Origin: Thalia democratica
Taxonomy: Eukaryota
Assembly (NCBI GenBank): GCA_965202585.1
Contig: OZ241829.1
Location: 14,818,001 to 14,882,000 of the forward strand
Direction: 5' to 3'
Length of the DNA: 64,000 nucleotides
Positions 13,440 to 51,881 of this stretch are shown here, piece after piece (within the stretch, counting starts at the first letter, position 1; the number at the start of each line of letters is the position of its first letter). Both the position numbers and the translations under genes were made by a program. The notes beneath the pieces were generated by a model. The model ran no database searches, was not told the origin of the DNA, and was given only the letters and a program-made list of their open reading frames with translations.

Positions 13440-13475
13440 TCTTGCGAGTTTTAGCTTACTTCAGAAAAAAAAGAT

Positions 13476-25893: not shown

Positions 25894-26059
25894 ACTAGTC
25901 ATTTATAACTCTGGTAGTGTAATTGTTTTACTGGGAACAAATTGAATGTGTAGTGAATAAAGGAAATAATACATTTAAAACAAGTGCAAGTAAACAAGAA
26001 GCAGAAATGAGGTCAGCTGTATAATGAAATAGTTTCTCAATAACAAGTCTATATACTTT

Positions 26060-27159: not shown

Positions 27160-27550
27160 TGTTTTGTCAGTAAGAAAGGTGCGGTTAACAGTCCCCATCG
27201 CTAAAGGTAATTTTATAAGTATACCGGGCGTCATTAAACCCTCAGCAATTGAAAGAAAGATCGAGCAGGAAAGATAAAGATGGCACTTCCTAAGAGTCTC
27301 TAAATAGGAAACAACTTCAGGGCGTTGATGCCACCACGAAAGAGGATAGCAGTTTGGGATGTTGAACCACAAAACCTAAATGACATAATGAATCTGAAGT
27401 GGCTTGTTAACTCCGAAAAGTTTTCTGGAAATTCGAATTCGATGTCACTCGCATATTTTGTAACATAAGGTAACATAACAAAGCGAGAAGAGCTGAAATG
27501 GAGCTACGGGGAAACACGTTTTTCAAAACCAAAGTCTCAAAACTGGCTAA
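27160..27550 (+). pseudogene. SET8-like SET-domain fragment (copy B)
   Basis: VPIAKGNF..., GVDA(T)TKEDSSLG, AYFVT...REELKWSYGE...QNWLK. Homologous to copies A and C, multiply frameshifted. Confidence 0.7.
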
Positions 27551-28169
27551 AAATTGTTAATAATTATGTGCACGTCAGTAATCAGTTTGAAACATTTGAA
27601 ACTTACAAAATCTTACAAAATATGTTTTTTTTTATACTTTACTTGTGTAATTCTACATTTACAGAATGAAAATTCCCATATGACACCATTGTAGATTTGG
27701 CAATGAAGTTAGTTGAAAAGACTTTTGATTTCCAAACCGTTAGCAGACGTCTATAAATCAATCATAACACTGTTAAACAAGGGATTTTGAGTTTTTTTTA
27801 TTTATTTTGAATAAGTGGTACAAAGGTAAGTTAGCGAAAAATGAAATTATAACCCATATATGATCTGCACTTATAATAAAAGCTCTAGCGAGTTATGTTA
27901 GGATTTCAACTGACGTTTCATGCTAAAAATTACTTTACAAACGCTTTCTTGTAAACATGGTTTAATAGTGTAATTTTGGTTGTAAAAAGCAGTTTGTACT
28001 TTAGTTCAAACCCTACATAACAAAACAATTTAATAATTTTGTTTTATTAATTTTTTTTGTAACAGGTTTTTTTTTAAAGCTGTAACACTAGAAGTTTTTT
28101 CATTAATTAGTTAATTAAAACACTTGCTAAAAAATAAGTTTACAATACTTTTTTTATAAATTTTCCCAG

Positions 28170-28450
28170 GTTTAGTTTTGAGGCCAAATTTTAAGTTTAG
28201 ACAGTGTGTACACTTTGATCAAACTCATGAAATTGATGAAGCAGCCTTAAAATTTCAACTTAGATTACCTACAGAATTAATTCCAATTAAAAACTTTCCA
28301 GCTGGGGACTGTTTGTTCAAGGCTATTTCCAAGTCACTATATGGTACTGAAAACCATCACTAAAACCTAGGGCTCCAAGATTTTATTTGGATGTTGCAAA
28401 ACTAAAGAAAATGCTGTCCAAATTAAAAGACTGTTCATACTAAAGTTGTT
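28170..28450 (+). pseudogene. OTU-like cysteine protease fragment (paralog at ~35960-36240)
   Basis: LIPIKNFPAGDCLFKAISKSLYGTENHH matches the OTU/vertnin-type G.CLFRA.S..LYG.E..H motif; follows a CCCAG acceptor-like site. Confidence 0.65.
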
Positions 28451-29339
28451 TCACTGAATTTGATTTCTCTTAACTATCATTGGTGATAGATGGAGAACAA
28501 GCTCTAATAAATTTAGTATACAAAATATTTCCTAAAAGTTTAGATCCTAATTTAAAGATTAGGTGAAAGTTTAAAGTTTAGATTTAAAATAAGAGGATAA
28601 TATAAATATTGGAAAACCAAACAATAGCTTTAGAAATTAGTAAAATAATTTCTTTCTAATTTAAGTAGTTTTTTGAAAGTAGTTAAGTTTTGTTAACTTG
28701 TATATCTTATAATATAAAGTTTCACTATTATATTTCAAACTATTCATTTATTTTGTTGTAATTTGAAGAAAAAAAAAATTGTCTGATGTAAGTTTGTTTG
28801 TCCTATACTGTTTTACTTTTTAATAAAATTTTTTTAGAGGTAATTAAAAAGACTGAAACCATCAAACATTCAAGCAAAATTCTTATCTGACGATAAAAAG
28901 CTATCTTAATTAAAACAGCATATACTTTGATTAATATCTCCTTACAGAGTTGCTGACTGGTAAGGGAATGCAGATTTAAGCAACAGGGTATTATAAAAGA
29001 AGTAAATGAAGCTAGTTGATTAAATAATAAAAAAGTCTTCAAATACATAAAGTTTATTGACTGAATTGCATTTTGTTATAAACAAAACTTAAGTTAAAAA
29101 GTAAGAATTTTAACAAGGAGAAATTACTAGTTGTTCTAAGCATACTTCAAACAAAATTCTTAGCTGAAGATAAAAAATCTTTATTAGATTAATATTTAAA
29201 AAATCACAAGCAAGAATATAGCTCCGATTGCTGACTTTTAAAAGGTAAGAATGCGTGTTTCAACAGGTTGCTTGATTATAAAATCAATGTAAATTTCTGT
29301 TACGCCACACTAATTAACAGCATTGCTGTTTGATAAAAA

Positions 29340-29762
29340 ACACAAAAGTTGTTGAAAAAAAATCTCTACGAATTGATAACAACTCTTTTGAATTTGTGTT
29401 AACTAAAACTGTTCAAATACAATCTGTAGAGACTGATAATAACTCTTTTGATTTTGTGTTAAATGATGTTGTTGAAATACAATCTGTAAGTACTGCTAAT
29501 AACTGTTTTGATTTGTGTAAAACTGTAAAATAAAGTTGTTGAAAAAAATCTGTAGGGACTGATAACAACTCTTTTGATTTTTTGTTAAATAAATTTGTTG
29601 ATAAATCTGTAGAGACTGATAATAACTCTTTTTATTTTGTGTAAAATAAATTTGTTGAAAAAAATATATAGAGACTGATAATAACTCTTTTGATTTTGTG
29701 TTAAATAAAGTTGCTGAAATACAATCTGTAAATACTGATAATAACTTTTTCAATTTTTTGTT
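29340..29762 (+). repeat. 60-bp minisatellite (~7 copies) encoding a 20-aa repeat
   Basis: Unit ~AAATAAAGTTGTTGAAATACAATCTGTAGAGACTGATAATAACTCTTTTGATTTTGTGTT translates as (N)KVVEIQSVETDNNSFDFVL. Confidence 0.85.
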
Positions 29763-29869
29763 ATATAGAAATTTTACATGAAAAGAAAAACTTAATAACA
29801 ATAAACTATATGTTAATACTGATGCTGCTAGTAGCTTTACTAAATTCATTGACCTGCAAGGAATAACAA

Positions 29870-30280
29870 ATTTTAAGTACAATGCGACAAATGCCTGAAA
29901 TGGTATCACAGATGGTATCTTGAAATGTTGCCCAAACAATTTAAAAAATAAAAGCCTATAAATCTGTGTTGGAGTTGCTCATTATGTGAATATATGTCAG
30001 ATGCTAATAATTCATAAGTATCTGCCACAAATGCTATAGGCAAGTTATAGAAATTGTAAAGAAGATAATTAAAGATAATAGTGGTTGGTTAAGTGAACTA
30101 AACTTTACTGCTTAGTAGATTTTTGTTTTAAAATATAAGTTTATAAAAACCAAGATCGAGTTGTTTAGATTAACAAATTTCAGGTACACTGTGACGATTG
30201 CTTGAAATGTTATAATAGATGCAGTCTTGAAAATCTGTCTAAACAGTTTAACAAAATTCAAGACCTAAAGTTTCAACAGT
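29870..30280 (+). pseudogene. Two PHD-finger-like half domains (third copy at ~33450-33550)
   Basis: VQCDKCLKWYHRW and VHCDDCLKCYNRCS resemble the PHD C..C..W.H..C motif. Confidence 0.55.
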
Positions 30281-31079
30281 TTTGTCATTTTTTAGAAATT
30301 TTTTACTGTGTATTAATCTCATGAAAAGTACTGTGTATGTTTGCCTATAATATGAACAGCAAGTAAAAGTTTCTGGCTGGAGAGGGTGAATAGCAGTCCA
30401 TGTATGAATTTCATGAAATATTATAAATAAACAATAATCAATGTAAAATTTGTAAAAAAAATAATTTAGAATCTAACATGATCACTATAACTGTCAAAGT
30501 TAGGAGACATCTACGTGGTCAAACAACAACTGAACAATTTTAGAGAATTCTAGAGGGTTGATATTTTAGAGATGATTGTAAACTGTAATCTGTTAATCAA
30601 TGGAGGAGGTCATCTAGAATTTGTTCACTTTATACAGTTTCTTTTCCATTTTTTAACTATTTGTTTTTTTTTAAGTCTAATTTTCATACGATGTGGTATA
30701 AGTTTTGATTAAATTAATTCATATAATTAATTTAATTTAGGAACTTGATTATAGTCTACAAAAAGGAATTTAACCTTTTTTTGAGAAATTCTATTAATGA
30801 TACTGAACAAAAAGATAGCCATGGTGAAAGTAAATTCACCAGTTAAAAAATTTGGACCAGTGAATTTGCCAGGGCCTGAAGTAAACAAGACATCTTTCAG
30901 GTTAAATGAGTCGTTTTCCAACATGAATATTGAAAGTCAGGCGTCACATATGCTAGATTTGAAGAAAACTTTTAAACTCAATGTCTCAAATTTCAGTTTT
31001 ACTTACTACGAAAAATAAGTAATGTTGCCTTACTAGGAAATAAAATTGCAGCAGTAATAAAACTGACAAAGTGCTAAGA

Positions 31080-31503
31080 ATTGTTAGTGATACTTTTGCT
31101 TTGCTACTCTCAATTCGATCACGACTGCTCCTTGAGATTTCCTAACGTCAAATGTGATCGCCTGAACGTTATATGCGAGAAACTGAGAGTAGTATATATG
31201 GAAATCTGCAAATATGTTTTATACCACATTTGCACAGTAACCAAAAATAGAAGATTAAAAAGGGTCATTCTACAAACTTCAAACTTTATTGTCGAAAGGT
31301 GACACACGCCTAGAAGATGTTATGCAGAAAATAGGTAGTGTTCATGACACAGCATCCTTAAAACGAACAAAATGTACAAAAATTATAACTAACACTATTG
31401 CACCTATATTCAGAAAACTAATTATAACTGATATGATGGGAAAGAACTGTAGTTTTTACATAGATGACAGCACAGACAAATCAGGATGCAGTTTTCTGGG
31501 CTA
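31080..31503 (+). mobile_element. hAT transposase N-terminal catalytic fragment (paralog at ~35165-35680)
   Basis: KRTKCTKIITNTIAPIFRKLIITDMMGKNCSFYIDDSTDKSGCSFLG matches the hAT RTKCT.II.N.IAP...FS..IDESTD.S motif. Confidence 0.75.
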
Positions 31504-31803: not shown

Positions 31804-33233
31804 GTAAATATTCAGAGGTTTTGAGTTAATGATAGCTGAGCAGTAAAAGTTGGTCACATCCCAAAATGCAGAATTTTTAGAAACTGAGGTAGAGCTAACT
31901 AATAGGATCATGAAATTCAATAAACAATAAAAAGTATACAATAAAAAAGTTACTGAAATGAATAAAGTCAGATTAACACCCAATGAGATAGTCAAGGCAG
32001 ATTGTATTAAGAAGTGGGATAGAAATTGGGAGACTAAATATAGAGGTGCTCAAAGGGAAATTAGAAAAAACATGGACAAAATTGACGGTTTTGAGGGCAA
32101 AATCATACCTGCAGGAGAGGGCAATAAATATGTTGATATTCCACAGCTGAGTGCAGGGCCAGGTATGGTTAAAAAGTACAGAAAGAAATTTGATGCTGGA
32201 TCAACTTCTAGTACTTTTTCACAGCAAGTCGTCGTTAGAAACCAATTGGCAATGGACAAATTCACAGATTACCACAAGAAGATTAGCAATGACATGAAAA
32301 TGGAAGAATTCAAGGGTCAGATCAGTATGGCTGACATTGACTTCTACTCCTATGACCGGGGTCAAGTTTTTAAGAAGATCTGGAAGTGTGCTGACGAAAA
32401 TTCCATGATCGCCAAGATGAGCGATAAAGAATTCGCTGCCGATGTTACTGATGTTCATATGGTTAGTTAGAGGAACTAACTTTGAGCGAATTAAGAAAGG
32501 ACTGAGTCAAAGAACTCAAGATCGCATAAATGTCTTAATGAATAGGTACGGGTTTAAAACTCGTAAAAAAGATGATACAACCAAGGCGATGGTAAGGCTA
32601 CAAAATGACGACTTAACAGTCTCAAGATTTTGTGATCTGTACCCGATGAGAGTCTGGGCCATTTGGCATAATACTGATAAAGCTCAGAGACCTAGTTTCC
32701 TAACACATACAAATTTAACAGATGAAGAGATAGAACTGGCTAGAAGTCTTCGATGTCCTTCATTACCCTATTTGTGCTCTAAAACCCTACGAGATGGATC
32801 CAAGGATTGTTTTGATTTTAAAAACCTTTTATCCTTTCATTCTATTTTCCTCCTCGACTTCGACTGTCTGATGTTCTCTTGGGTAAAAGGTAGGCCTAAC
32901 ATGCCGGACACTTTTAAGCCACGACTTGGTCTGATTTGCCAAATCGTGAAAAAGAAGGTCATGGCCAAAGATTTTGTGCCTAAAGATGAAAATAAGTTTG
33001 AATCTCTCAATAAAGCAAACCTTATTGTAGGAAATGATCACACTGAAATGAGAGAAAGCCCTGATTTGATCAAGAAGCTTGTGCCCATTGCTGAAAAGAT
33101 TCTCACTGCAGTGATGAACGAACAGGATGCAATTGAAAACTCACTAGAGAATATTTTGAATGACCTCAGAAATAAGAAAGAATTGCCTATTTTAAGGCCT
33201 AGTAAATCCTTAGGTTGTAATGTAAGTAAGTAA
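31804..33233 (+). pseudogene. Endogenous viral element: phenuivirus-like (Bunyavirales) nucleocapsid N gene
   Basis: ORFs 31958-32470 and 32442-33233 join through one frameshift at ~32444. Collinear matches to phlebovirus/tenuivirus N motifs (recalled): DFYSYDRGQVFKKI ~ FAYQGFD.RRV; WLVRGTN ~ ALTRGNK; INVLMNRYGFK ~ VEALINKYKLK; NDDLTVSRF ~ RDELTLSRV; RCPSL ~ MHPSF; FHSIFLLDF ~ AHSLYLLQF. The frame continues upstream to 31808 with two stops. Confidence 0.8.
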
Positions 33234-34291
33234 ATTTTCTTTCTTTATCTTTCCTTCAACTGCCAAACGTTCGTCATTCCAGTTTCATTCTAAGTGCCTT
33301 TTGTTCCACCATTAGACATTCCTCTTAGCTGTACATGACTGTAGGTAAGATTTTATTTCGTTTTTTAGTGCTGCTATACTTAATAGTTCTTTGATTATGT
33401 AGATTCATTGGGAGTTCAATAAAAAAATAATCGTTTAGATTAACAAATTTTAGGTATACTGTGACGATTGCTTGAAATGGTATAATAGATGCAGTCTTGA
33501 AATTCTGCCTAAACAGTTTAACAAAATTCAAGACCTAAAGTTTAAACAGCTTTGTCATTTTTTAGAAATTTTTTACTGTGTATTAATCTCATGAAATGTA
33601 CTGTGTATGTTTGCCTACAATATGAACAGCAAGGAAAAGTTTCTGGCTAGAGAGGATGAATAGCAGTCCATGTATGAATTTTATGTAAAATTATAAATAA
33701 ACAATAATCAATGTAAAATTTGTAAAAACAATAATTTAGAATCTAACATGATCACTATAACTGTCAAAGTTAGGAGACATCTACGTGGTCAAACAACAAC
33801 TGAATAAATTTAGAGAATTCTAGAGAGTTGATATTTTAGAGATGATTGTATACTGTAATCTGTTAATCAATGGAGGAGGTCATCTAGCATTTCTTCACTT
33901 TATACAGCTTCTAAACAAGCCTATATAGTACGAAATCATGAAATTTAATGTAAAAAGTACACTTTTTATTTTTTTAACTATTTATTTTATTTTATTAAAT
34001 CTAATTTTAGTATGATATGGTATAAATAGAGTTACTAATTCAAATTAGGAACTTAACAAAAAAGTCTACAAGAAGGAATTAATGTTTTTTAGAGAAATTC
34101 TTTCATTGATACTGGACAAAAAGGGAGCCATGGTGAAATCAAATTCATCAGTTAAAAAATTTGGACCAGTGAATTTGTGAGGTCCTGAAGTAAACACAAC
34201 ATCTTTCAGGTTACATGAGTCGTTTTCCAACATGGATATTTGAAGTCAGGCGTCACATATGCTAATTTGAAGAAAACTTTTAAACTCAATG

Positions 34292-35159: not shown

Positions 35160-36872
35160 TCAATGTCTCAAATTTCAGTTTTATTTACTACGAAAAATAA
35201 GTAATGTTGCCTTACTAGGAAATAAAATTGCAGCAGTAATAAAACTAACGAAGTGCTAAGAATTGTTAGTGACAATTTTGCTATTCTACTCTCAATCCTA
35301 TCACCGATTGCTCCTTGATATTTCCTAACATCAAATTTTATCGCCTGAACGCTATGTGCGACAAACTGAAAGTTGAAAATGTGAAAATCTGCAAATGTCT
35401 TACGCCATATTTGCACGGTAACCAAAAATAAAATATTAAAAAGGGTCCTTCTACAAACTCAAAAACTATGTCGAAAGGTGGCACATACATAGTAGATGTT
35501 ATAAGAAAATAAGTTGTGGTCATGACACAGCTACCTCAAAACGAACAAAGTGTACAAAAATTGCAACTAACTTTCTTGCACCTATACTCAGAAAACTAAT
35601 TATAACTGATATGATTGGAAACAGTTGTAGTTTTTACATAGATGACAGCACAGACAAATCAGGATGCAGTTTTCTGGGTTAAATAATTTTTTATAATCTT
35701 TAAAAAATTTTTGTTTTTATTGTTTACTCTACCAAAACTTTGTTGAAAACATGGTTTAATAGTGTAGTTTTGTTTGTAAAAAACAGCTTGTACCTTAGTT
35801 CAAAGCCTCCATAACAAATAAATTAATAATTTTGTTTTATTAAATTTTTCGTAACAGGTTTCTTTTACAAAAGCTATAACATTAGAAGTTTTTTATTAAT
35901 TAGTAAATTGAAATACTTGCCAGAAAATGAGTTTAAAAAAACTTTTTTTAGTGAGTTTCTAAAGTTTAGTTTTAAGGCTACATTTTAAGTTAAGACAGTG
36001 TGTACACTTTGATCAAACTCATGAAATTGATGAAGCAGCCTTAAAGTTTCAACTTAGATTGCCTACAGAATTAATTCCAATAAAAACTTTCCAGCTGGGG
36101 AAAGTTTGTTCAAGGCTATATCCAAGTCACTATATGGTACTGAAGACCATTACTAAAACCTAAAACTCCAAGTTTCTATTTGGATGTTGCAAAATAAAGA
36201 AACTGCTGTCCAAATTAAAAGACTGTTCATACTTAAGTTATTTCACTGAATTTGATTTCTCTAAGCTATTATTAGTGACATGTGTATACAAGCTATAATA
36301 AACTTAGTTTACAAAATATTTTCTGACAGTTAAAAGTTTAGATCCCAATTTAACGATTAGATGAAAAATTTTTAAATAAGAAGATAATATAAATTTTAGA
36401 AAACCAAACAAAAGCTTTAGAAATTAATGAACTAATGTTCTTTTTAATTTAAGTAATTATATGAAAGTAGTAAAGTTTTGTCAACTTATATATCCTATAA
36501 TATAAAATCTTTCATATTATATTTTAAATAATTTATTTATTTTGTTGTAATCTTAAGTTTTTGTCTGATGCAAGTTTGTTTGTCCTATATTATTTTACTC
36601 TTTAATAAAACTTTTCAGAGGTAGTTATTAAAGATTAAAACCATCAAACATTCAATCAAAAGTCTTGTCTGACGAAAGCATTACTGTTTGATAAAAAACA
36701 CAAAAGTAAAAAAATATTGAGTGTAGTAGGTATATTCTATTGAGCATATTACTGAATAACATACTCATTACTTGTTCCATGGTTGCCATAAGTTTTGGCA
36801 AATTTTCTCTAGGTTTTCGAAATTTCCTTTAGTTTTTTAAGTACACCTATTGGGACTATTGTTAGTTTAAAG

Positions 36873-37591
36873 CAGGGGTTGCCAACCAGGGATGCAAGAT
36901 TGCTTATCATTTTTGTTTGATAAATAAGGAGATTTCACTCTCTGATAAAGTTTACAAAGTTAAAAAGTACATTTTGTTATAAAAAGAAGTTGGCGCTAAT
37001 TTTCTGAATAAATTAATTTTGGAAACTTGAACCATTTATAAACCATTTAGAAATACTATCCAAGTCATTTGACGGATATTTTAAAATAGGAGAACTGGAA
37101 ATTTCTGGAGAATGGATAATAAATCCATATTCTTTTAATTTGAATCACATGTCCGATGATGAGTCGTTAAAAGATGAACTTATTGAATTATGCATTTCTC
37201 AAAATGCAGTTTGAAAGCAAAACTCTTGAACAATATTGGTGTTGTTGAATGAATATGTTTCAAAAACTTGGTGAAAAAGCACTAAGTACTCTCATTCCAT
37301 TCGCGACGACTTACTTGTGCGAGTCTCTGGATTTAGTACTCTTTTGTCAATAAAAACTAAATCTAGAAACCGCTTTATGTTTAATTGTTATGTTTTTAAA
37401 TTTACAAGTATTTTAATTTTGTTAGTATAGTACACTATCATAAAAATCAAAATACAAATTATGAATTAATGAAATCAATGACTTTATAATCAAATTATTA
37501 ATAAATAATTATGGCATATAGCGTTAGGGGGTGCGAGATCAAATTAAGAGACTTTAGGGGTGCGGGGCATTAAAAAGGTTGGGAACCACTA
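36873..37591 (+). mobile_element. Internally deleted hAT (Charlie/Buster-type) element
   Basis: TIRs CAGGGGTTGCCAACC / TAGTGGTTCCCAACC and perfect 8-bp TSD GTTTAAAG. Dimerisation-domain remnant ALSTLIPFATTYLCES(GFS)TLLSIKTKSRNRF at ~37260-37378. Confidence 0.9.
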
Positions 37592-38649
37592 GTTTAAAGT
37601 AAAATAATGTGTTAAATAGTATAAAAGTATTAAAAAGACACTGTAAAGCTACTTTAAATGTGATTTTAATAAAAAAAAATTGATGATGAAATAAAATTTT
37701 AATCTTGATTTCTACTTAACATGTAAAAATTGTTTAACAATTCTAGGTTTTTCCAAGATTGCAGGTTTTTTGGCAACCCTGTCTTCAAATAAGACTTGAC
37801 AGTAGTTTTTTTTTCGGATATTTCAAAATTAAACAAAACTTTTTGAATTCAAGATTAAAAAATTGGCTAAAAAATATAATACTTCTGTAACATAATAATA
37901 TAGTTGATCGTTTGCTCAAGCAACCGAAAAAACTAAGACTAAATAAACTTAATATTTTCTGTGTAAAATAATTTTAAACAAGTTTAAAATCTTACCAACA
38001 GAGTCAATGGTGAATAAGGTAAAACAGAAACAAGTGAACCTTAAGCGCTTTGTTTTAAACTTCTCTTTTAATAATTATAACTTAACCAACATCTATAAAA
38101 TCTACAGCAAACTGACAACTTTCAATGTAAGTGCAATAATTTACATTTTAATAATTGGATGAAAAATAGGAGAAATCTAGAGTAAAAGTGTTGGAAAAGA
38201 CAGCAAAAAAAATTCTTGATAAAGTAGTTTTTATTATGTCAATAAAGAATAATTGGTTTTACACTCATTAAATAAAAAAAAATCGGTGAAAATTTGACTT
38301 AATAAAAACAATCTAATAAATAGATTACAATTATCTGAATGTTAAAAAAAGTACAAACAGAAACTCATGCAGTAGCGTTATAAACTTAAACAGTTTAGTT
38401 ACAGATATATCTATTTAATAAAAACAAATATGAGAAGTTTAAGAAATAATACTATTAGCACAGTAGAAAAAAGGAAATCGGGTTTAACACTTAATGGTAA
38501 ACAATGACAAAATCACATCAAAAAAATTCAATACCTAAAGCATTGATTGGTTTGTAGCTTTCAAATTTTGTAGTATGTAATTTTTTTTTTAAAGATATAC
38601 ATTTATTGATTAATCGTGTAAAATTTTTTATTTATAAAAACTAGTTTTG

Positions 38650-39038
38650 ACAGGAAGAGGGGTTCAACATCCCCCATCTCTAAAGATTATTGTTGTTCGT
38701 GTTGCCGGGACTTTATTAAATCCTCAGCAATTGAAGGTATAACGAATTTAACAAAGAAAATAAAGATGATACTTGGTTTTACTTAATCTCTAAATAGGAA
38801 ACGCACACTGAGGAGTTGATGCCACGGAAGAAGATGGCAGTTTGATGTTGAACCGCCAAAACCTAAACGGCCAAATGAAACTGAAGTGGCGTATTATGCC
38901 TGACAAGTTTCCTTGAATTCAAGAACTTGCCTACTTTGTGGCATCAGCTGACATAGTCATAGGAGAAGAGCTGATATGGAGCTTCGTTGGGAGACCAGTA
39001 GTTCCAAACTAAAGTCTAACCCTTGGCTAAAACTTTAA
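38650..39038 (+). pseudogene. SET8-like SET-domain fragment (copy C)
   Basis: TGRGV..., GVDATEEDGSL, AYFVASADIVIGEELIWSF, SNPWLKL*. Confidence 0.75.
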
Positions 39039-39099
39039 ACTAATCATTTGTAACTTTGATATTATAATTTTTTTAAAGCCTAATGTTACCAGAAGAAAA

Positions 39100-39297
39100 A
39101 ATTCTTGTAGTTTACAAGTTTAAATGCTACTGTGAAAATAGCGACATTGGACAAATTTCCCGTCACCTAAAAACAAGAATAAATGATCATGTTCCAAAAT
39201 GCTTTACGTATTACATCAGAGACAAAAAGATAAAATGAGCGTAGCAGTCAAAAATGCGATAAGAAAATCAGCTATAGCTAAACAGATACAATCATAA
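39100..39297 (+). mobile_element. Penelope-like element GIY-YIG endonuclease fragment
   Basis: VVYKFKCYCENSDIGQISRHLKTRINDHVPKC then, after a frameshift, VAVKNAIRKSAIAKQ; matches the PLE VVYKF.C.C...YIGQT.R.L.TRI.EH....SAIA.H pattern. Confidence 0.75.
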
Positions 39298-40299
39298 GGT
39301 CAAAGAAGAGAAACATCGTTAAATTATAAAAATAAGGTAGACCACATAATCAACAATTTTTAAAGTATTTTGCTATCTTTAGATTACTGTTAGTTGTTTT
39401 AACCTAAATGTAAAACAAATTAAAATATTTAAAGATACAATCATGAAGACAAAGAAGATAAACATCGTTAAAAGAGAAGAATAAGGTAGACCAATAAGAA
39501 ACAGCACCAACATATTGTAACTGATTTGAACAATTATCATGAAAAAAAAAATTTGACAAAGAGTTTAATTCTCTCTCTTTAACAAAGACTCCAAGTCTGA
39601 AGGTTGTGCTAGCATTGGAAATTTAGATTTGGTAAATGTTAAATGTTTGCATTTAAGTTCAAGAGCTTTAAGCGAAAAGAATATCGTTTGGACGAGTTCT
39701 ATTTTGAACACTGAAAGGTTATCAATTTTCATATACTCCACCGACGTCGATTCACCTACAATAGCTTCCAGTATAATTTAAACGAATATTAACAGTGGCT
39801 AGCTGTTGTTAAGTAAGATGCTGAAAACTAAATAGTAAAAAAAGAAAACTATCTATTTTACTAACTATTTAAACACAAATGAAACTTTTCAAAGGCATTT
39901 GTCGAAGACAAATGCCTTCTTTTTACCAACTTTTTATTTTTAATAAATTTTGTCTGAATTGACATATTCATATTAACATCAAGTTTATCACAAAAAGCAT
40001 GATACATTATTTAAAGAAAGTATTAAAAAGGCAAAAATTCAAGTTGTAATAAATAAAAGCAGTATGTAGTATTTACCTTCATTCAATTTTTTGTTATACA
40101 GTGTCGAAAGATGAAATTAAAACACTTCAGGGAAAAATTATATAGAAAACATCTTAGTACAGCTGTATTAGTTTAAGTTTGATTTAATTGCTGAGTATAT
40201 TCAGTATATAAGTTTTATACGAAGCAGTGGCAAATATCAAACCTAACATAATTATCTGCACGGATATGTCCACGGATAAGCATTAAAGGTGCATAATGA

Positions 40300-42600
40300 A
40301 AAACCAAATGAGATGAAAAAGAGTTTCTTTGAAAGGGATTGGATCAAGACTTTTATTATCTAGCTGCCATAGGAGTGGAAGTAGGCGTTAGCATGAATAC
40401 TTTTGTCAGGAATGATAATGAATTCCTGCTGAAAAGTCTTTTAGAGTACAACATATAGTTGGTTTTAAAACCTTGTAGAAAAAGTTAATACACCTTTGTC
40501 ACATACATGATACCAAGATAACAGGAAATGAAATACTGTGAATGCAGCTTGTCTAAGAATGATAGAATTACAAACTTTTTATTCTCTGATTAGGTTTCAT
40601 TTGACAGTAACAGATTCGAAAACTTGATAAAGGTTCCGCAGTTGATACAGAATTACCATAATAAACCTAAAAGGAGTCCTATTGAAAAAAGTTAATGTCA
40701 AAGATGTGTAATCTAGCCTTTCTTGCTCATCTTGAGGACAAAACCAGCACAAAGGAAGCAATAACCAATACACGGTACGTGACAATGAATGTACTTTAAA
40801 TAAATAAAGACGGTTCCGTGATGAAATTAATCAAAAAGTTTACAAAGATGACAATATAAAGGTTGAAACTGCTTGCAAGTCTAATGATTGCACTTCAGGT
40901 TGGAGATCATCTGTTTAGGGAGGTTGGAGAAGATGCTGTGTGAGACATGAAACACCCAATATTTGGTGATCCCATGGACCAGCCACAAGATGTTATTGGC
41001 GGCTTTTATGTAGGGTACTTCAAGGATAAAAACATTAAGAACGAACAAAATGCTGAGTATGCATTGGCTGGCAAACTGGCACTTGCAGAAGAAAAGTTGG
41101 AGAGTTGCGATCCTGAATTTTTAGGTGATAAAGGCAATTAATCTTTTAACTTTTACAGAATTTTCCCTTAAAAATTTTGTTGCCCGTGGTGCGATGACAA
41201 AGAAAATAATAGCACGGAATCATAGCGGTGACCCTGACATCAAAATAGAGAGAACAATATATCATTATATGAGCAGGATATCATGAGATGAACTTCAGAC
41301 ATCATTCATTACAGATGAGACACGGGAAAGCAATAAAAAAGCACACCGAGAGCCATGGTCTCCGTTGCTAAAGTTGCAACAGACGATGAACAATAAACCC
41401 ATTTATGAATGCTTGGGTGGATTACTTGAAATGTTTGAAAACAAGATGGAATACTTGTTGATTTATTTAATGAACACCAGAATGGGGGTAATGATTAAAT
41501 ATATGTTCTGGATGGAATATCCAGAGTCATACAGGCTATATGCGAAAGAATAGACAAATCAGTGTGCAGCCTTCTTTCTTCAGAGATCATGACTTACCCA
41601 AAAAATAAACAAAAACTGCAGACTGATCATCACAGCAAACCCAGACAGTACTTTGACAAGCCGTGCACTTATGAATTCTAGCAATGATTTTCAGGGTTGT
41701 GTCACACTAACTTAGTCACCAAATAATGACCGCATACATGCTGTCAATTGTTCCTAAAAGGTAGAGAGATTTTATAGAGAGGGCCTTTTCCATGTGAAAG
41801 AAAAAATAAATTTATCTTCAGACAGGCTTCTGCAATAAGCTCATAAATGATGTACACAAGTGTAAACCAAAAAAAGAGAGAGTTAACATGATCATGGAAG
41901 CACACAGAGGGGATTGTACAGTCTATTAGATGAAGAAGGAAGGTTTTGTCTATACAGCTCGTTCTGGCATGATGCAAGGAAATCCTTAATTTTTAGTCAT
42001 CATCCTTTTACGTTAGTTTCACTATAACAAATAAATGTCTTGAAGTGAACCTGATTGGGAACTACCCAACAAGGGATAATTGATAAATTTGAGGACAACT
42101 AGGAAAAAAAGAATGTCTTTCAACCTTGGGGAAAAAGAGAGAGGCAAAGTGTCAACAATACTATACTGTTTTGCATCAGGTTCTTGATAATGTTTCTTAC
42201 ATTGACACAGTGAGAGATGTACAGTTTGGTCAGATGTATGTACATTACAAATCACTAGGAAATAGTATAAATCACCTATTCCCTGACATGATGACTAGAA
42301 TGGCAATGACAAGAGCTCCTGACATGGGTTGGTTTCTTATAGATCATCCTAATGCAGTTGGAGTATTTGGGCTCAATTACATTATATACAGGAAAATTAT
42401 GTCAACCAAGATATTCAGGAGGATATTGACAATGGCAATTGGGAATAAGAGGAAAAATTTTGAAGATAGAAATTCTTCATAAAACATCAGGGTTAAAATT
42501 GATAAAGGGAAGAAACTTCAGGCTTTAAGAGACAAAATGGATGAAATAAATGAGTATGTAAATAAAAAAGTCTATGTGTACTCTGGCAGCAGGCCTTGAT
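40300..42600 (+). pseudogene. Endogenous viral element: phenuivirus-like L (RdRp) gene fragment, heavily decayed
   Basis: Collinear L motifs across frameshifts and stops: AIGVEVGVSMNTFVRNDNEFLLKSL..LVLKP..TFVTY (40357-40510); FLAHLEDKTSTKEAITNTRYVTMN (40704-40799); HPIFGDP...FYVGYFKDK (40947-41141); motif F LFNEHQNGGND*IYVL...ERIDKSVC...PKNK (41451-41620); motif A SSND (41677); motif B SGMMQG/ILNF*SS (41963-42005); QMYVHYKSLG...PDMGWFLIDHPNAVGVFG (42126-42482); GKKLQALRDKM (~42500-42540). Confidence 0.88.
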
Positions 42601-45357
42601 GAGCAATCACCTTTTACTTTATCCTAGTTGTTACCTCGATGAGCAGTAATATTTTGTTTTCAAGTTGTACATTTATTTTACATTTATTGTTTTTAGCATG
42701 CTTCAGAAAGTTAGATCTTCAATTAGATCTAATTTGAAACATTAAAAAAAGAAAATATTGAATCTCTACAGGAATTTGAGCTAATTGAAAAAAAAGTAGT
42801 GGTAGTATAAAGTTTATGTCTTATTTCAGTAAAAATATAAATTATGCCGCTAAAATACACCAAACAAAATTTGATCACAATTGAAAAATATTTAACAGAC
42901 CAAAAAATGGTTTTAAAGACTTAAAAAAACAAGTTTGTTTGCGAAATCCTCGAAACATTTATAAACAATTATTTTAAGAATATTAACAATATACGATATA
43001 GTAGTTTATTTGGTAATTATTGTGTCCCAAATTAAAAAACAATACGCATAAACTACTAAATACAACAATAAACAACATAAACTGTAAAGCAAAACTACTA
43101 TTCAACAAAAATCAGATAATAAAAATAGTTGAATGTAGTGCATAAATATCAATAAACCATAAGTAAGGATCTTTTCAATCCATATAAATTTTTTGAAAAG
43201 GATCTAGCCGGATACAAATCAATATAGCTATAAACTAAGTTACATCTAGATTACAATTTTTTTTTTGGAAAAATATCATTTCTAAAACAAACAAATGTTC
43301 AGCTCCCAAACAACTTTTCATAAATTTGAGAAAAATAGAATTCAATATGTTTAGCAATAAGAAATTATTTGAGAGGAAAAACATAATAAAAAAAGTTAAT
43401 GTAAATAGTTTTCAAGTTACACAAAATAATGAAAGTGTCATAGAATGTATGCAATTAAGGAAGGAAAATAATTTCAACCACATAATAAAGAGAAATTTAA
43501 TCACAAATATTTTCTGAAGAATCAAATCAAATTACCTCTGTATTGTCAAACTATTTAATCATTTCAAATAAATTCATTTTCTTTAATTGACTTTGAATAA
43601 ATGGCTTTAGCAAAAGGTAATGTTGGAAAAATCTGCAACTAAATCTTTGGTACTTTTGCAATAATTGTTGCAAAACCAAAAAAGACATTAATATAAAATT
43701 ATATAATAATTTATAGTTAATACCACAACAACAGATGTATATTTAATTTTTTTAATAAATAAAGCAGATTGGCAAAAACTTGATTTAACCTATGTTTACT
43801 AATGTATCAAATGTTATATAGCTATCATATATGAAGTTAAAAATATCAGAAACAACATACCTAGTACTTTTTAAAAAAAAATTTTAATTATATTTTTTTT
43901 ATTGAACAAAACTTCTTGATTTCAATGTCTATAAAACTATTTAAAAATATAATATTTTGTCTGCTTGTAATGCTCGTGTTTTAAAAACTCTTAAGCCTAA
44001 GTTTTAGTTCTATGAATACACAAGAATTCATAAACGAAACAACCTCTTAGACCTGAAAAAACTGCTTGATCAAGGTGTTTCTCCTCATCAACCACACTCA
44101 ATGAAAGGTGTCTCCCCTCTACAGCAACAATAATGAGAGGATGGTACATGAAACTAGGTGAGCCAACAAGGGGTGGATCAATTTGCTAGTTCTTTTGACC
44201 AACTTGGTACTTCTTGAACCTGCAAGTAAATTGTCTTAGGGTTCATAAAAGAAGCATTCTATTATCATTAATATATACATTTTTTAATCAGTAATTAAAG
44301 ATTTTTGTTATAAATTTTATGAAATTTTTTTTTAAATATTCATTAAACTTCTGAATATTATAACAAGTCTATATAAAGTTTTATTACTGCTAAGAAAATT
44401 GAATCAAATTAACCTTTAGGTTTTGATTGATTGTATTCCATTTTTTTAATGAACACTTTAGTCCAAACTATACATTGTATTAAAGGCTAACAAAAAAAGC
44501 TTATACGCCAGCAAAAATAAGAAAACATCAATAAACTATTTTAGATTTTTGGTATTTTTTATAAAATATAATGTAAATCAATACATAATACTATATATAT
44601 ATAACTTAAATTACAAACTTTGGTAACTTTGACATTATTAGATTTCATACAAAAAATGTTATGGAAGGTAAAACTTTTTTTAATTAAAATCTTTAAAAAA
44701 TTCGTTAAAAAGCTGAAGCATTACAAAAAACTTGAGTTTTAATTATTTTAAATTTCAAAGGAGACTCATCTAAGGCCATAAGGGGTTTAACCATTTTTAT
44801 TACTAAAATCAACTTTAGTCCTAAATGAAAGCTTAGTTTATAAACAAAGAAACTTTTCACAAAGTATATAAATTATTAAGTTTTTGTAACATAGTTAATT
44901 ATGTAAAATGTTTCTGATACAAACATTAAAATATTTTTTTATATTGCTGGTTTTCTTGGAATTTTGTAAAAAACTATTAAATCGTTATTCTCCTTTACTT
45001 TTTATCAAATAAACTTAAACTTTCATGTAATATTTCTTGCATTTATAGAAAAAAGCCCACTCTAATGATATTATTAAAATTTAAAAAAACTTAAGAATTT
45101 GATGACTGATAAGTAAAATAGCAAATCAATTTTTTTAGAAAATGAAAATCTTAATTTAAATTATAAACTATTAAAATAGCATTGCTTTAACTTATAAGTT
45201 TCAGAACTATTGATTAAAAACTGTAAGAGGAGAAATATTTCTAATAAATAGTCTTATTCACATTGGTACTTTCATAAGGAACCTATTAAACTCTCTAACT
45301 ATATAATCTTAATATCGAAAACTAGTTTGATATTTACTAAGCGGTAAAATGCAACTA

Positions 45358-46107
45358 CAGTAATCTCTCGCTTATTTACGCACATTGTGTCCACAGAAAA
45401 AGTTTGAAAGATATGAGAGATGGTAAAGATACGAGAGGTACCAAATATACTTACTACAATGGCTGTATTTTTATTTTGCTTCTAGTTAAAAGCAGACTGG
45501 GGACTTTCCCACTTTTAACAATTTGTTTACTTTATTTATAAATATGAAATCAAAATATAAAACTCTACATATTTAAAAAAAAAGATTTAAATTTATATAA
45601 AATAATAATACTTATAGAAAAGTTTTACTAATTTTAACAATAAGTAGATTTTAATTTTATCTTTATTTATATGTGACTTTTTTAATAATTAACATTTATA
45701 ATCTACTACTTAGCAAATTCAATTTATAATTAAACAGTTGTTTACAATTAAGAAATAGTGTCTATATATATCTATGTTAACATTTTAAACTCTCATTATT
45801 TTATTATACTTTCATTATTTACACAGTTATATTACTTTCCAAAATTTAATTTAATATCTTATTGTTAACAAAATTTCTGATATACTGAGGTATACTAAAT
45901 GTTTATCAATTAGTCAAGGAACATAATTTAACAAATTTTAAAAATATAGAGAGGTGAGTTAACATTTAAAAACATATTTTAAATTGAAAATATACAATAA
46001 ACCTAATTTGTGCAATATTAAAATAAATTTAAATTTTTATATTTTGAATTTTGGAATTCTAAAATGCGTAACTAAACGAGAGTGCGTAAAGATGCGAGAG
46101 GTTACTG
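45358..46107. mobile_element. Tc1/mariner (pogo/Tigger-like) MITE
   Basis: 26-bp TIRs CAGTAATCTCTCGCTTATTTACGCAC / CAGTAACCTCTCGCATCTTTACGCAC flanked by TA on both sides. Confidence 0.85.
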
Positions 46108-46734
46108 TAGCAGATAAGTTAAAAAGCTTTAAATAAGATCAACATGTAAAAAATAATTTTCTTCTGGTACGACTTTAAACTATATTAGTTTATATATTTT
46201 TGTTTGAAAAACTTATATTTTTAACTAAGTCAAAATAAAATAGATATTCAATTTTGGAAGAGGTTTAATACAAAGAGGATCTCAAAAAGAATATTTTTGT
46301 AGTGTAAATATGCTGTTATAAAACAGAAAAGCATACATGAATCAACTGCAGAAGTTTAAGTATCTCAATGGGCTGTTGGGTGGAAATTTATTTTTTTGTG
46401 ACTAAATATAAACTAAGTTTTTTGTTATATTTGGTAGAGCTTAGCTCTTCATTTCGTAACTATTTGCTTTTAAAAGTATTCTAGGAGTAAAAATTAAATT
46501 TGTAATGCTTATTTTTTCTTTTCTTTTTTGTAAAAAATACTGAAAATGCTACATGTTTAATGTCAAAACTAAGGTATTCGACAACTACATAAAGATACCT
46601 GAATTAATCATACATGATTATTCTTTATACCAGCTCTATCTTTTTGGCTTTCTGTTTTTGGAAATATTGAGTTGTGAGTATTTTTTTGTAATTAATTTTT
46701 ACTTTTATAAAAATTAAGGGTTTTTACAAAATTT

Positions 46735-46952
46735 CAGGATGTACTCAAGAAAAGAACAAGTCACTTTTGAACAAATTGTCACTTTCACAAAAGTGGTAAC
46801 ATTTGCACAAGGTTAGAGTTAGGGTCTGGCTTAGGGTCATAGTTAAAGGTTAAAGCTAGGGTCCTTGTAATGTGAATGTGCAAATATTACTGCTTATGGA
46901 AAATAACCCTTTGTACAAAAGTGTGCCTTTGAGTAAAAATGACGACCTACCC
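46735..46952. mobile_element. Small degenerate MITE with 17-bp GTCACTTT repeats and TTAGGG-like core
   Basis: GTCACTTTTGAACAAATTGTCACTTTCACAA repeats, core GGTTAGAGTTAGGG..TTAGGG..GCTAGGG, and right end ..GACCTACCC resembling the 23120 terminus. Confidence 0.5.
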
Positions 46953-48729
46953 ATTAAGGACATATAGCTCTACAACTAAGCATCCCCATATTACATCTTT
47001 GTTTATAAGTACACAAGATAAGTTAAAAAAAAGTATAGTGAATAGTGTCTTTTGAACAACCAACTTTAAGGTTCTTGTAAAGCAATATCTTAATTTTTTA
47101 ATGTCTATTAATTTAATTTCAATTTTTTAAGCAACTTGAACAATAATTTTCTATAAAAACTATATCAAACTAGAGAAAACCATAATAAAAAACAAATTAC
47201 AGGTGTCTGTGTCTGAATTTTTTTGTTAGCTAGCAAACCATTTTTAGATATAACTTATAGATAATTTTGAGTAAGTTGAACTGACCATCTACAAAATTCA
47301 ACAACTTATGAAATTCTTAAAAATAAAATATAAAATATAATTTTCAAAGGACCTCATTTATGAACCATTCAACTAATTTTATTATAGTTTTATTGCTATG
47401 TCAAATCAAAAATGTCAATATCTGCATTAACCCACTTTCTCAGCTCACTGTGCAACACCATCAATGTATTTACTTCAGCTTAGTTATTAGTACAGTGTTT
47501 CAGCCTTTTATTAAGTAAAAAGTCCAGCTTGAGTCGGCCCAAGTTGGTTAAAAAATCAAAAAATTTTTTGAGTTAAATACTTTAGCTACTTTTTGACCTA
47601 GATATAAACTTTAGAATAATTAAAATACAAAATTTTATACACTTATTGGATAAATTTAACTTTATACATATGATGATCTATCAGTTATTAAAACTAAATC
47701 AATTAAACTTTTATAAAATAAAATGTAATTATATAATAAAGTTATTAAATATTACTAAGTTACAGTGGGACAACAACTCACATACAGATATATTTCAAGT
47801 TTATTTACTTATACTTTATCATGTGTGAACAGCATTCCATAGTAGGTACTTCATATTGTTGAGTGCAAGGAAATAAAGTGAGCAAAGAATGTTTAAGAAC
47901 TTTGTGAAGATGTTTCCAATTTTTTATTAAACTTTATAAGTAGGAGAAAAGGGTTTTTTGGTCATCCAATTTAAACCAGGGTTGAACTTACGATACTTTA
48001 ATCCGTTTGTAGTACACTTGTAGTGATTACAAATAAAATTTTCATAATGAAAAATTAAGAAATTTATAAAACTAACTTTAAACTAATAAAACACAAGAAA
48101 ACGTTTAGATAAAATTATAAAAATATTTCAAATTTGTAAGATTATTGTTTGTTTTACTATGGTTTTATTAGAAAAACTTATCGTATGGCTTAACAGAAAT
48201 TTAGAAACTAGTGTTACTTTTGTTTTAAAAATACATTATAAACTACTGGAAGGTTTAAAACGCTTATAGGTTATTTAAATGCTAATTTGTACTTTTTAGC
48301 AAAAGGTAGTCTTATAAATAAAAGACATGTTTTGGTTATATTAATATTTTCATGGTGTAAAACTCAACACTAACCATTGTACAAGCAATATTACAAGAAT
48401 TTTTTTTTAATGTATAGTAACTTTTACATTTTAATATAGACTAATCTTAAAATAGTTTTTTTATCTGAAATAGTTAATATTCTATTAGCTTCAAAGTTAT
48501 AAGGTTTTTCTTTTATTTAGATATTATAGAAAAACAAAAACTTTTATTTAACATTTACAAATTAAAAACAAGACACTTAAAAACTAAAAATAGTAGTTTA
48601 TTAATAAAATCAACAAAATCGGCGAAAGTCTGCAGAACAAGTCCGGACTTTCGTTTGCCGTGAGACAAGCTCAAATTTAACAAAAGGGTTGATCATGCCA
48701 ATTCGATCATCAGACCACAAGTTTCGGTA

Positions 48730-48772
48730 GACTGAGACCGGTTTCGTCCTTATTAGGACTCATCAGTCAGTC
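48730..48772 (-). ncRNA. Type I hammerhead ribozyme
   Basis: Minus strand reads GACUGA-CUGAUGA-GUCC-UAAUAA-GGAC-GAAA-C-CG-G-UC/UCAGUC. Confidence 0.9.
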
Positions 48773-49057
48773 ACAACCGAAAAACTTGTAGTCGTCAATC
48801 TACAAACGGTTTATCATGCTTTCGCATGAAGCTACCATTTGCTGGCAATGATTAGTGACGTCAGCATTGTCTTTGCCGTGCAACGTTTAAAACATTGTCC
48901 ACTAGGCAAGACATCTGGTACGCTCGTTTTAGTACAATCAACAAAATCGGCGAAAGTCTGCAGAACAAGTCCGGACTTTCGTTTGCCGTGAGACAAGCTC
49001 AAATTTAACAAAAGGGTTGATCATGCCAATTCGATCATCAGACCACAAGTTTCGGTA

Positions 49058-49100
49058 GACTGAGACCGGTTTCGTCCTTATTAGGACTCATCAGTCAGTC
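49058..49100 (-). ncRNA. Type I hammerhead ribozyme
   Basis: Identical copy, +328 bp. Confidence 0.9.
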
Positions 49101-49385
49101 ACAACCGAAAAACTTGTAGTCGTCAATCTACAAACGGTTTATCATGCTTTCGCATGAAGCTACCATTTGCTGGCAATGATTAGTGACGTCAGCATTGTCT
49201 TTGCCGTGCAACGTTTAAAACATTGTCCACTAGGCAAGACATCTGGTACGCTCGTTTTAGTACAATCAACAAAATCGGCGAAAGTCTGCAGAACAAGTCC
49301 GGACTTTCGTTTGCCGTGAGACAAGCTCAAATTTAACAAAAGGGTTGATCATGCCAATTCGATCATCAGACCACAAGTTTCGGTA

Positions 49386-49428
49386 GACTGAGACCGGTTT
49401 CGTCCTTATTAGGACTCATCAGTCAGTC
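49386..49428 (-). ncRNA. Type I hammerhead ribozyme
   Basis: Identical copy, +656 bp. Confidence 0.9.
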
Positions 49429-49713
49429 ACAACCGAAAAACTTGTAGTCGTCAATCTACAAACGGTTTATCATGCTTTCGCATGAAGCTACCATTTGCTG
49501 GCAATGATTAGTGACGTCAGCATTGTCTTTGCCGTGCAACGTTTAAAACATTGTCCACTAGGCAAGACATCTGGTACGCTCGTTTTAGTACAATCAACAA
49601 AATCGGCGAAAGTCTGCAGAACAAGTCCGGACTTTCGTTTGCCGTGAGACAAGCTCAAATTTAACAAAAGGGTTGATCATGCCAATTCGATCATCAGACC
49701 ACAAGTTTCGGTA

Positions 49714-49756
49714 GACTGAGACCGGTTTCGTCCTTATTAGGACTCATCAGTCAGTC
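49714..49756 (-). ncRNA. Type I hammerhead ribozyme
   Basis: Identical copy, +984 bp. Confidence 0.9.
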
Positions 49757-50227
49757 ACAACCGAAAAACTTGTAGTCGTCAATCTACAAACGGTTTATCA
49801 TGCTTTCGCATGAAGCTACCATTTGCTGGCAATGATTAGTGACGTCAGCATTGTCTTTGCCGTGCAACGTTTAAAACATTGTCCACTAGGCAAGACATCT
49901 GGTACGCTCGTTTTAGTACAATCAACAAAATCGGCGAAAGTCTGCAGAACAAGTCCGGACTTTCGTTTGCCGTGAGACAAGCTCAAATTTAACAAAAGGG
50001 TTGATCATGCCAATTCGATCATCAGACCACAAGTTTCGGTAGACTGAGGCCGATTTTGTTGATTGTACTAAAACGAGCGTACCAGATGTCTTGCCTAGTG
50101 GACAATGTTTTAAACGTTGCACGGCAAAGACAATGCTGACGTCACTAATCATTGCCAGCAAATGGTAGCTTCATGCGAAAGCATGATAAACCGTTTGTAG
50201 ATTGACGACTACAAGTTTTTCGGTTGT

Positions 50228-50270
50228 GACTGACTGATGAGTCCTAATAAGGACGAAACCGGTCTCAGTC
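50228..50270 (+). ncRNA. Type I hammerhead ribozyme
   Basis: Stem I GACUGA/UCAGUC, core CUGAUGA (50234-50240), stem II GUCC/GGAC, GAAA, minimal palindromic stem III ACCGGU; predicted cleavage after GUC at 50264. Confidence 0.92.
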
Positions 50271-50555
50271 TACCGAAACTTGTGGTCTGATGATCGAATT
50301 GGCATGATCAACCCTTTTGTTAAATTTGAGCTTGTCTCACGGCAAACGAAAGTCCGGACTTGTTCTGCAGACTTTCGCCGATTTTGTTGATTGTACTAAA
50401 ACGAGCGTACCAGATGTCTTGCCTAGTGGACAATGTTTTAAACGTTGCACGGCAAAGACAATGCTGACGTCACTAATCATTGCCAGCAAATGGTAGCTTC
50501 ATGCGAAAGCATGATAAACCGTTTGTAGATTGACGACTACAAGTTTTTCGGTTGT

Positions 50556-50598
50556 GACTGACTGATGAGTCCTAATAAGGACGAAACCGGTCTCAGTC
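50556..50598 (+). ncRNA. Type I hammerhead ribozyme
   Basis: Identical copy, +328 bp; predicted cleavage after 50592. Confidence 0.92.
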
Positions 50599-51881
50599 TA
50601 CCGAAACTTGTGGTCTTTATTAATAAAAGTAACAAATATAAATTACTTAAAAATGAATTAAACTTCATTACAATAATTTGAAACCGAAACGATGAATGTT
50701 AAGTTCTTCTCTGTATCTGTTATCAGAAATAAAGGTTTTTAAAGTTGATAAATCTAGTATTTATGTGAACTGCTTCTATTGTAAAGTATGTATACAAGTA
50801 TATTTTGAATGTTGTACTACTCTTAAAAAACTTTGAACTAATAAAACTTTCTGGAAAAATAGAAATTCAGAAATATACTTATGCTTATGTCGAAATGCTA
50901 TACAACCAGAATAGAAAAATAATTACGACATTCACTTTTTTGAAACAATCTGAAAAACATCAAGACGGCTTTATTCACAAATAACGAAAAGTATAGAGAA
51001 TAAAACTGGAATTTTCAACAAAGTATTTATATTAACAAATTATTAAGTACTTTTCTATTTTACTTATTTTAAAGTTAAAAAAAATTGCTTAAGTTTTCCA
51101 ACTACAAAGTAAAGTTTGTAATGATACCATCATACACTTTTTTTGTATGTTTGACATATACATTGATCATAGTGGCAGCTGATTATTTTAGAAACTTTTT
51201 TCAGGTTCTTTTACAGTTTCCTTGTTTCTTGTTAGTAGCAAATTAAAAATAAGGTTAAAACTGTATTATAGTTACTGAAAAGATTCTGTAGTACTACTTT
51301 TTTGTGTTAAAAAGTAAACAAAGTTTTACAAAATTAAAACCTTTTAATGAACGAAGTTGAGATAGTTTTCATTTTATCTGAAAGAGTACGGATAGATGAT
51401 TTCTAGAATTATGTGTCTTTTTCTATTTAAAATTTATCAATATTATGATGAACTTATTTTATAAAACCTACTTTAATAGCAAAAACAAATTGTGTGAAAC
51501 TGGTTAACAGCATTCACTGTACATTGGAGGCTAACACGAAGTTGATGTGAAAAAATAAAAAAACTTTATAAAATCCTTTCGCAGGTCGATGAAACTCTTT
51601 TGCAAGCCGCTGCCAGAAGAGAAACTTTCAAGCGACCTCCTAGAGACCTAGATGTTCCTTTCTTAATAAAATCGAGTCGAGGCTAAGATCAGAGATCTAC
51701 ACTGACAGTAGAGAAGTTACTGCAACAATACGGATTATTTTTGCTCATTCATTGACCTTAAAAGCGAATTTTTATTAACTTTTGAAATGTTTTACTCAAG
51801 TAGACGGGGATATTTATTTAAAATGTAAGCGGTAGAAGTATTTCGTTCCATCTGTAGTTAAACATGCCCGCTACGAGAACC

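Follow-up and report, generated by a model that had tools for sequence, protein, structure and literature searches.

The window, by which we mean the whole 64,000-nt stretch of DNA analysed here, contains an endogenous fragment of a phenui-like bunyavirus L (RdRp) gene at 40250..42560 on the + strand. The L matches form collinear blocks that correspond to reference aa ~490-1375 of ~2100 and are broken by stops, ~8-10 frame changes and an internal deletion. The initial annotation had put this element at 40300..42600; the location stands, its start is moved to near 40250, where the copy L002 further along the same contig starts to match, and the viral matches stop at ~42560. GC content is 0.30-0.40 within the element vs 0.20-0.27 downstream of it. 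An endogenous Tenui_N-like nucleocapsid (N) gene is located between direct repeats at 31804..33432 (+) and is less decayed than L.

All L blocks are on the + strand, spread over its three frames, and are given relative to reference P0007. Upstream of the polymerase core, 40351..40650 matches aa 521-619 (38.5 bits in the profile search). It is followed by 40674..41126 (aa ~644-790), found in the PDB, tblastn and profile searches; the profile domain 40674-41642 is the strongest with 162.9 bits. The next block, 41146..41442 (aa ~806-910), is split over frames and scores a weak 2.3 bits in the window copy, which lacks 14 nt near 41305 that are present in the other two copies; the overlapping block of copy L003 scores 43.7 bits. 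The motif F block lies at 41445..41663 (Pfam, tblastn) and agrees with P0043, a 248-aa ENA protein without a name, in 36 of 68 columns. The motif itself reads HQNGG..*IYV at 41475-41507 (+), with a stop inside it in the window copy. A motif A remnant occupies 41671..41688, its NSSND (41674-41688) being identical in letters to that of P0043; this piece alone scores 10.7 bits, within the range of shuffled sequences, and the call rests on its position and on the NSSND in P0043. The block after motif A through motif B (41726..41980; 25.2 bits) ends with GMMQG at 41966-41980. The last block (42147..42554; aa 1223-1374; profile 71.7 bits, also PDB) comprises the downstream motif G.FL.D.P..G as GWFLIDHPNAVG at 42327-42362 (+). 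The letters F, A, B, C and E are labels that we assume for these motifs, which were positioned by alignment to real references.

Motif B and the last block are separated by 166 nt (41981..42146, +) in each of the three copies, vs 133 codons (~400 nt) in the reference, so that ~235 nt are gone. No trace of motifs C (SDD), D and E was detected here: SDD is absent from every frame of 41981-42146, and the best segment scores 10.2 bits, which is not above shuffled sequences (median 9.9, maximum 17.0). This loss had escaped the initial annotation. Its further description was accurate, namely about eight collinear blocks (roughly 8-10 in our count, short frame pieces included), motifs F, A, B and G.FL.D.P..G in L-protein order on the + strand at the positions claimed, and an element mostly invisible among the open reading frames, as a single + strand frame of ≥ 100 aa (42093-42482) overlaps it. 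Given its 12 stops, its frame changes and the missing motifs C-E, the element cannot yield a polymerase and is not an active RdRp gene.

The window also holds a BACK/kelch gene whose two frames are separated by an in-frame stop (4141-5118, +), a 306-aa open frame without Pfam match (12540-13460, -), a C-type lectin exon (55877-56170, -) and a 328-bp satellite (48601-50616) with copies 98-99% identical and an orientation switch near 50035. A block at 25512-31364, which contains what are presumably decayed transposon-like coding remnants, is repeated at ~90% from 61614 onward. The decayed stretch at 39077-39500, ~0.8 kb upstream of L, resembles what we take to be a Penelope-like GIY-YIG endonuclease; Pfam returned no match for it. 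A dispersed repeat of roughly 125 bp (39589-39715) lies at the edge of the duplicated block described below and has many copies of 81-85% identity on many contigs (40 of 128 candidates scored).

Homology to viral L proteins

A search of 1.84 billion representatives yielded 248 proteins that match the element at E ≤ 1e-3, 157 of them at E ≤ 1e-10, with a best value of 8e-31. Identity to full-length matches is 23-34%, and among the 150 matches listed, 148 exceed 1500 aa. Names were looked up for 29 of these 150 and for P0043. The named top matches comprise Aphalara polygoni bunya-like virus, Ips phenui-like virus 2, Yichang insect virus, Cumuto virus, Fushun hierodula phenuivirus and Reticulitermes phenuivirus. 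Eight of the first ten matches checked are named. Among these are six bunya-like, phenui-like or insect viruses, together with an RdRp recorded for a crayfish and a 'hypothetical' entry.

One frame of 40203-42602, with X at stops, scores 34 bits against Pfam Bunya_RdRp (PF04196; cut-off 25), and the other two + frames of this stretch gave no Pfam match. In the PDB the same frame finds six L/replicase sequences (E 3.5e-21 to 8.2e-19); on 6y6k, query residues 167-479 pair with chain residues 643-968 and query residues 649-755 with 1214-1322. The block picture of the profile search, for which a profile was built from 145 of the 150 listed matches, is reproduced by tblastn with the top 30 references, and tblastn with five of these 30 found nothing at E < 0.05 elsewhere in the window. 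In the profile controls, 84 of 100 triplet-shuffled sequences gave some domain, with a maximum of 2.4 bits. The element had been expected to match L proteins of negative-strand RNA viruses best and to keep their motif order. Both expectations were borne out, the first by the agreement of PDB, PF04196 and named phenui-like viruses, the second by profile and tblastn blocks that follow the L-protein order. The element resembles a virus protein without cellular equivalent and, given its phenui-like L homology, stops, frame changes and host flanks, is a fossil of a viral polymerase segment as proposed.

No more L homology was found 5' of 40250 or 3' of ~42560 in the region scanned around the three copies, nor any other L or N piece of this kind across the 164 kb scanned there. 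The conserved terminal octamer is absent from the window, and the element is an internal fragment. The glycoprotein search (PF07245), run without a positive control, was blank. A PF04196 search of the element's own genome gave 0 matches, a false negative that overlooks the known locus itself; genome-wide counts are therefore lower bounds.

Copies, junctions and decay

Three copies of the element (100%, 97% and 95% identity) are located on contig C5, an 85.7-Mb contig with host BTB-kelch and C-type lectin frames inside the window. The host segment 39589..48153 (+) was duplicated together with the element, with copies ~44 kb and ~162 kb downstream; for the far copy, the duplicated block spans ~35160-48153. 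Pairwise differences between the copies are 2.3%, 4.3% and 4.7% over ~2290 aligned bases. Nine of the 12 window-copy stops are common to all three copies (homologous frames, six zones). Of the other three, two recur in L002 alone and one is confined to the window copy, and L003 has three stops of its own. The internal deletion is common to all three as well. Because flanks, stops and deletion are shared, we infer one insertion, then long decay, then host duplication. pN/pS between copies amounts to 0.81, 0.71 and 0.77 on 30, 54 and 62 differences, small counts with transitions uncorrected, and these values, a little under 1, suggest that change since the duplication was likely neutral. Shared stops, a shared deletion, duplication with flanks and a pN/pS of 0.7-0.8 together indicate decay and inheritance as host DNA.

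The joining to host DNA is seen in the large contig and in junction-crossing contigs beyond one assembly. Contigs from run X1, which may be the source sample, span both junctions. A contig from run X3 (other study, other organism label) spans the 3' junction (42129-43460) with 70 differences in 1328, a divergence no greater than that of copy L003. Runs X4 and X5 contained only short, low-depth pieces and were not used for habitat or host. A flank search of the genome revealed neither an unoccupied (pre-insertion) site nor a target-site duplication, which leaves the junctions placed no more precisely than ~50 nt. Besides the three copies, it returned a stretch of C7 that matches the 3' flank at 66% but not the 5' flank, a 72% match of 142 bp on C5 and the roughly 125-bp high-copy repeat. 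An absolute age would require either a rate or an orthologue, and dating becomes feasible with the duplicated copies and the X3 carrier.

Nucleocapsid companions

The N gene of the window is split by one frame change into two open frames, 31931-32470 and 32421-33233 (+), and lies 7 kb upstream of L. It is single-copy in the genome, and its two frames are 75% and 86% identical to P0004, an unnamed ENA protein. Against Tenui_N it scores 20.4 bits, below the cut-off; P0004 reaches 33.4 bits and locus L026 28.5 bits, both over it, and P0005 24.1 bits. Since window N is far less decayed than the L fossil and not part of the duplicated block, it was likely inserted independently and at a later time. 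The X3 depth is 16.6 over the 5' half of window N vs 142.8, which may reflect polymorphism.

P0005 finds at least 11 matches in the genome at 28-61% identity, which correspond to ~six places after merging split and duplicated copies; in viral contigs it has no relatives. A profile of the N-like proteins retrieved only nucleocapsid/NP chains from the PDB (10 of 10 rows, E 0.017-0.91). For N, the predicted structure is poor (pLDDT 44). Its top 19 listed fold rows are phlebo- and bandavirus N at E 0.047 or weaker, with no fold match at E ≤ 0.001 and no usable match in the ESM Atlas.

Several N-like loci were recorded individually. L026:1414-2607 (-) on C8 (~63.72 Mb) is a 398-aa stop-free frame, ~29% like the other N copies; an exon of a dynein heavy chain lies ~2.6 kb away from it on the opposite strand. 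L019, L021, L023, L024, L025 and L029 are N-like fragments on C6 and C8, with two locally duplicated pairs (94% and 99%). On C6 (~67.128 Mb, +), L070:8074-9456 is a 461-aa frame matching rhabdovirus nucleocapsid (PF00945, E 2.1e-44), and a phenui-like N fragment ~0.7 kb from it makes this a mixed RNA-virus cluster.

A second L insertion with tandem arrays

P0043 also matches contig C1, where a second L insertion has its motif-F stretch amplified in tandem. An array of 19.6 × 122 bp (L044:366-2738, equal to C1:23310969-23313341, -) repeats the L motif F stretch, in which up to 20 of 22 residues agree with P0043, and a related array of 4.6 × 128 bp is located ~193 kb off in the opposite orientation (C1:23117438-23118024, +, in L068). 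The best match to the C1 array is the reference's own motif F for 121 of 145 references. The array and P0043 share a motif-F lysine that is absent from 127 of the 127 references in which the pattern was found, and a collinear upstream L piece lies 3.3 kb from the array (17.6 bits). Going by their sequence, the C1 arrays are a minisatellite made from an RNA-virus polymerase gene; the literature searched, mostly outside subscription papers, held no report of satellites derived from such a gene. Since the C1 insertion is just ~73% like the window element over 60-74 nt, it records a different virus.

Host

COX1 on contig C1833 has 23 AGA and 10 AGG in 480 codons, largely at conserved glycines, among them those of the GGG and FFGH motifs. 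We take the reading of AGA/AGG as Gly to be the tunicate mitochondrial code (NCBI table 13), which makes the host a tunicate. The chromosome-scale contig C4 holds nuclear copies of that mitochondrion, 79% identical, which tie the mitochondrion to the host. L017 and L018 (C4, ~56.8-56.9 Mb) are old nuclear copies of at least 3-4 kb of mitochondrial DNA at this identity. Marine metagenomes with a low share were not used as evidence on the host.

Phylogenetic placement

FastTree, run on 147 rows in which the fragment is represented by 302 residues from one frame, pairs the fragment with P0043 (0.971) and gives the pair no supported position. IQ-TREE (LG+C20+F+G4, 639 columns) was run on 40 of these rows, which were the fragment, P0043 and 38 others, 22 with and 16 without a name. 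There the pair is supported at 99/97 on a stem of 1.14, and a starred clade of 34 rows (99/96) unites it with Salehabad, Ramu stunt and Cumuto viruses; the pair falls loosely (81/99) with a goukovirus/nematode-virus grade. The sister group shifts between runs, with a support of 0.41 in FastTree, 81 in a quick tree that puts the pair elsewhere and 81/99 in IQ-TREE. Across trees, the stem of the pair measures 1.14-1.26 changes per column. All tree references come from the element's own match list, with limited outgroups. According to the ICTV profile (PMC12641553), phenuivirid L proteins group in the family tree, genera are monophyletic by L phylogeny, and Phenuiviridae have a nucleocapsid protein of phlebo/tenui type and 2-8 negative-sense or ambisense segments, with a glycoprotein in many and conserved termini. 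The fragment falls in the 34-row clade on 302 residues and limited outgroups, and it joins no single genus, the smallest supported set being the pair with P0043. Word-index searches for longer proteins with P0003 and P0043 gave 0 matches, and P0043 has no relatives in metagenome contigs.

From these trees, the source virus is probably a phenuivirid. As far as sequence can place it, it is on a long branch that no sampled genus fits and that has no named member. The fossil had been announced as usable for phylogenetic placement, and this is true within the phenui-like radiation; the placement is only coarse, on a long branch of its own.

That long stem would also suit an unnamed sister family in the same order, outside Phenuiviridae proper, as would an identity of at most 32% to any full-length reference and a companion N of ~390-430 aa, vs ~250 aa in solved phlebovirus N, that often scores below the Tenui_N cut-off. 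However, the pair is nested in the clade with Salehabad, Ramu stunt and Cumuto viruses, and an AU test rejects its grouping with three mycobunya-like outgroup rows (p 0.0038; the group was named after the trees had been seen). The N proteins moreover match only phlebo- and bandavirus N, by profile in 10 of 10 rows and weakly by fold. We consider the sister family rather unlikely and retain a probable phenuivirid as the source.

Interpretation

Very probably, the element is a non-coding fossil of the middle of an L segment that entered the germ line in one insertion, likely aided by a retrotransposon, decayed in a likely neutral manner and is now present in three copies. Reverse transcription is the established route for non-retroviral endogenous elements. 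By this general knowledge, a host retrotransposon reverse transcriptase would have copied viral RNA into DNA, which would have integrated once in the germ line, decayed without selection, mostly before duplication, and been duplicated by the host together with its flanks. No reverse transcriptase was found beside the element, and Pfam was blank for 38900-39800. The N genes at ~six places and the second L insertion suggest that the unnamed virus lineage likely entered the germ line of this chordate several times. The element itself is most likely dead DNA.

A broken frame would be irrelevant if the element were kept as immune memory acting through piRNA-type small RNAs. Small RNAs from such elements are described in arthropods in the available text of PMC10675110 and PMC6580184. 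The surroundings also fit: the element sits among dispersed repeats and duplicated units with an N-like copy 7 kb away, phenui-like and rhabdovirus N lie ~0.7 kb apart on C6, and two sites on C1 carry amplified copies of the conserved motif-F stretch. Nevertheless, the element evolves at roughly the pace of neutral DNA, the two viral pieces of the window share the coding orientation, and the co-duplication of host flanks means that duplication was not specific to the viral part. We judge immune memory unlikely for this element. A broader proposal, in which tunicates host their own deep phenui-like lineage and captured pieces in repeat-rich clusters act as heritable antiviral memory, with the motif-F arrays yielding small RNAs, is a quite improbable speculation.

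The virus might instead have belonged to a parasite, symbiont or food organism, its sequence reaching the tunicate germ line indirectly. The closest relatives that carry a name were recorded from insects, nematodes and fungi and in one crayfish entry, and tunicate-associated Bunyavirales contigs grouped with non-vertebrate viruses in the available text of 10.1101/2024.12.15.628590. Yet the N-like insertions at ~six places and the two distinct L insertions all appear to belong to one lineage, and such repeated germ-line entry fits a virus replicating in this animal, which makes an indirect source very improbable. The chance that the sequence is an error of assembly or contamination from a modern virus is negligible. 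Only the general risk in marine samples speaks for it, and against it stand the host flanks of three copies that have diverged from each other on an 85.7-Mb contig, the 12 stops, the loss of the active site and the contigs of independent runs that cross the junctions.

We keep to a decayed germ-line insertion, probably of a virus of this animal. Tunicates are the closest invertebrate relatives of vertebrates, and the phenui-like family includes Rift Valley fever and SFTS viruses. Because a tunicate filters seawater, a virus seen in its transcriptome cannot easily be assigned to the animal itself, but a fossil in the germ line establishes this link. The fossil thus extends phenui-like viruses to an invertebrate chordate and marks a branch without a named member. 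The N pieces and motif-F arrays make a small-RNA memory, as proposed for arthropods, testable in tunicates.

Comparison with known systems

With the L proteins of Phenuiviridae (Cumuto, Yichang insect, Aphalara polygoni bunya-like and Salehabad viruses; 6y6k, 7eei), the fossil shares block order and spacing over ~890 aa; it differs from them as a 23-34% identical fragment with stops and frame changes and without motifs C-E. Its closest L relative is P0043, and P0004 and P0005 are the corresponding N proteins; all three are nameless ENA proteins, either viral or endogenous.

Among chordates, the nairovirus element of the Etruscan shrew (PMC11521997, available text) is likewise bunyaviral sequence in a genome, but it is from another family, an N gene and in a vertebrate host. 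This vertebrate survey has one nairovirus element in its available text, and 'phenui' and 'tunicate' occur 0 times in the main text; 'bunya' occurs 0 times in the amphioxus survey PMC10145014. The tunicate-associated Bunyavirales contigs of 10.1101/2024.12.15.628590 are alike as bunya-like sequences found with tunicates; they are transcriptomic, were set aside as non-vertebrate-like and, in the available text, are not described as endogenous. No report of bunyaviral endogenous elements in tunicates was present in the literature searched, which lay mostly outside subscription papers.

Bunya-like endogenous elements have been reported in ticks, within the text available, and in crustaceans, where they account for 103 of 210 elements in the available text of PMC4573495. 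The crustacean elements (Armadillidium, Daphnia) are alike in that L and N fragments occur in an invertebrate genome, some duplicated after insertion and some from lineages without a known virus. Unlike them, the present elements reside in a chordate tunicate and include motif-F tandem arrays on C1; the likeness does not imply a shared lineage. The L element is thus a real fossil of an ordinary, well-known kind, and what is new is its host group, its unnamed lineage and its unusual companions.
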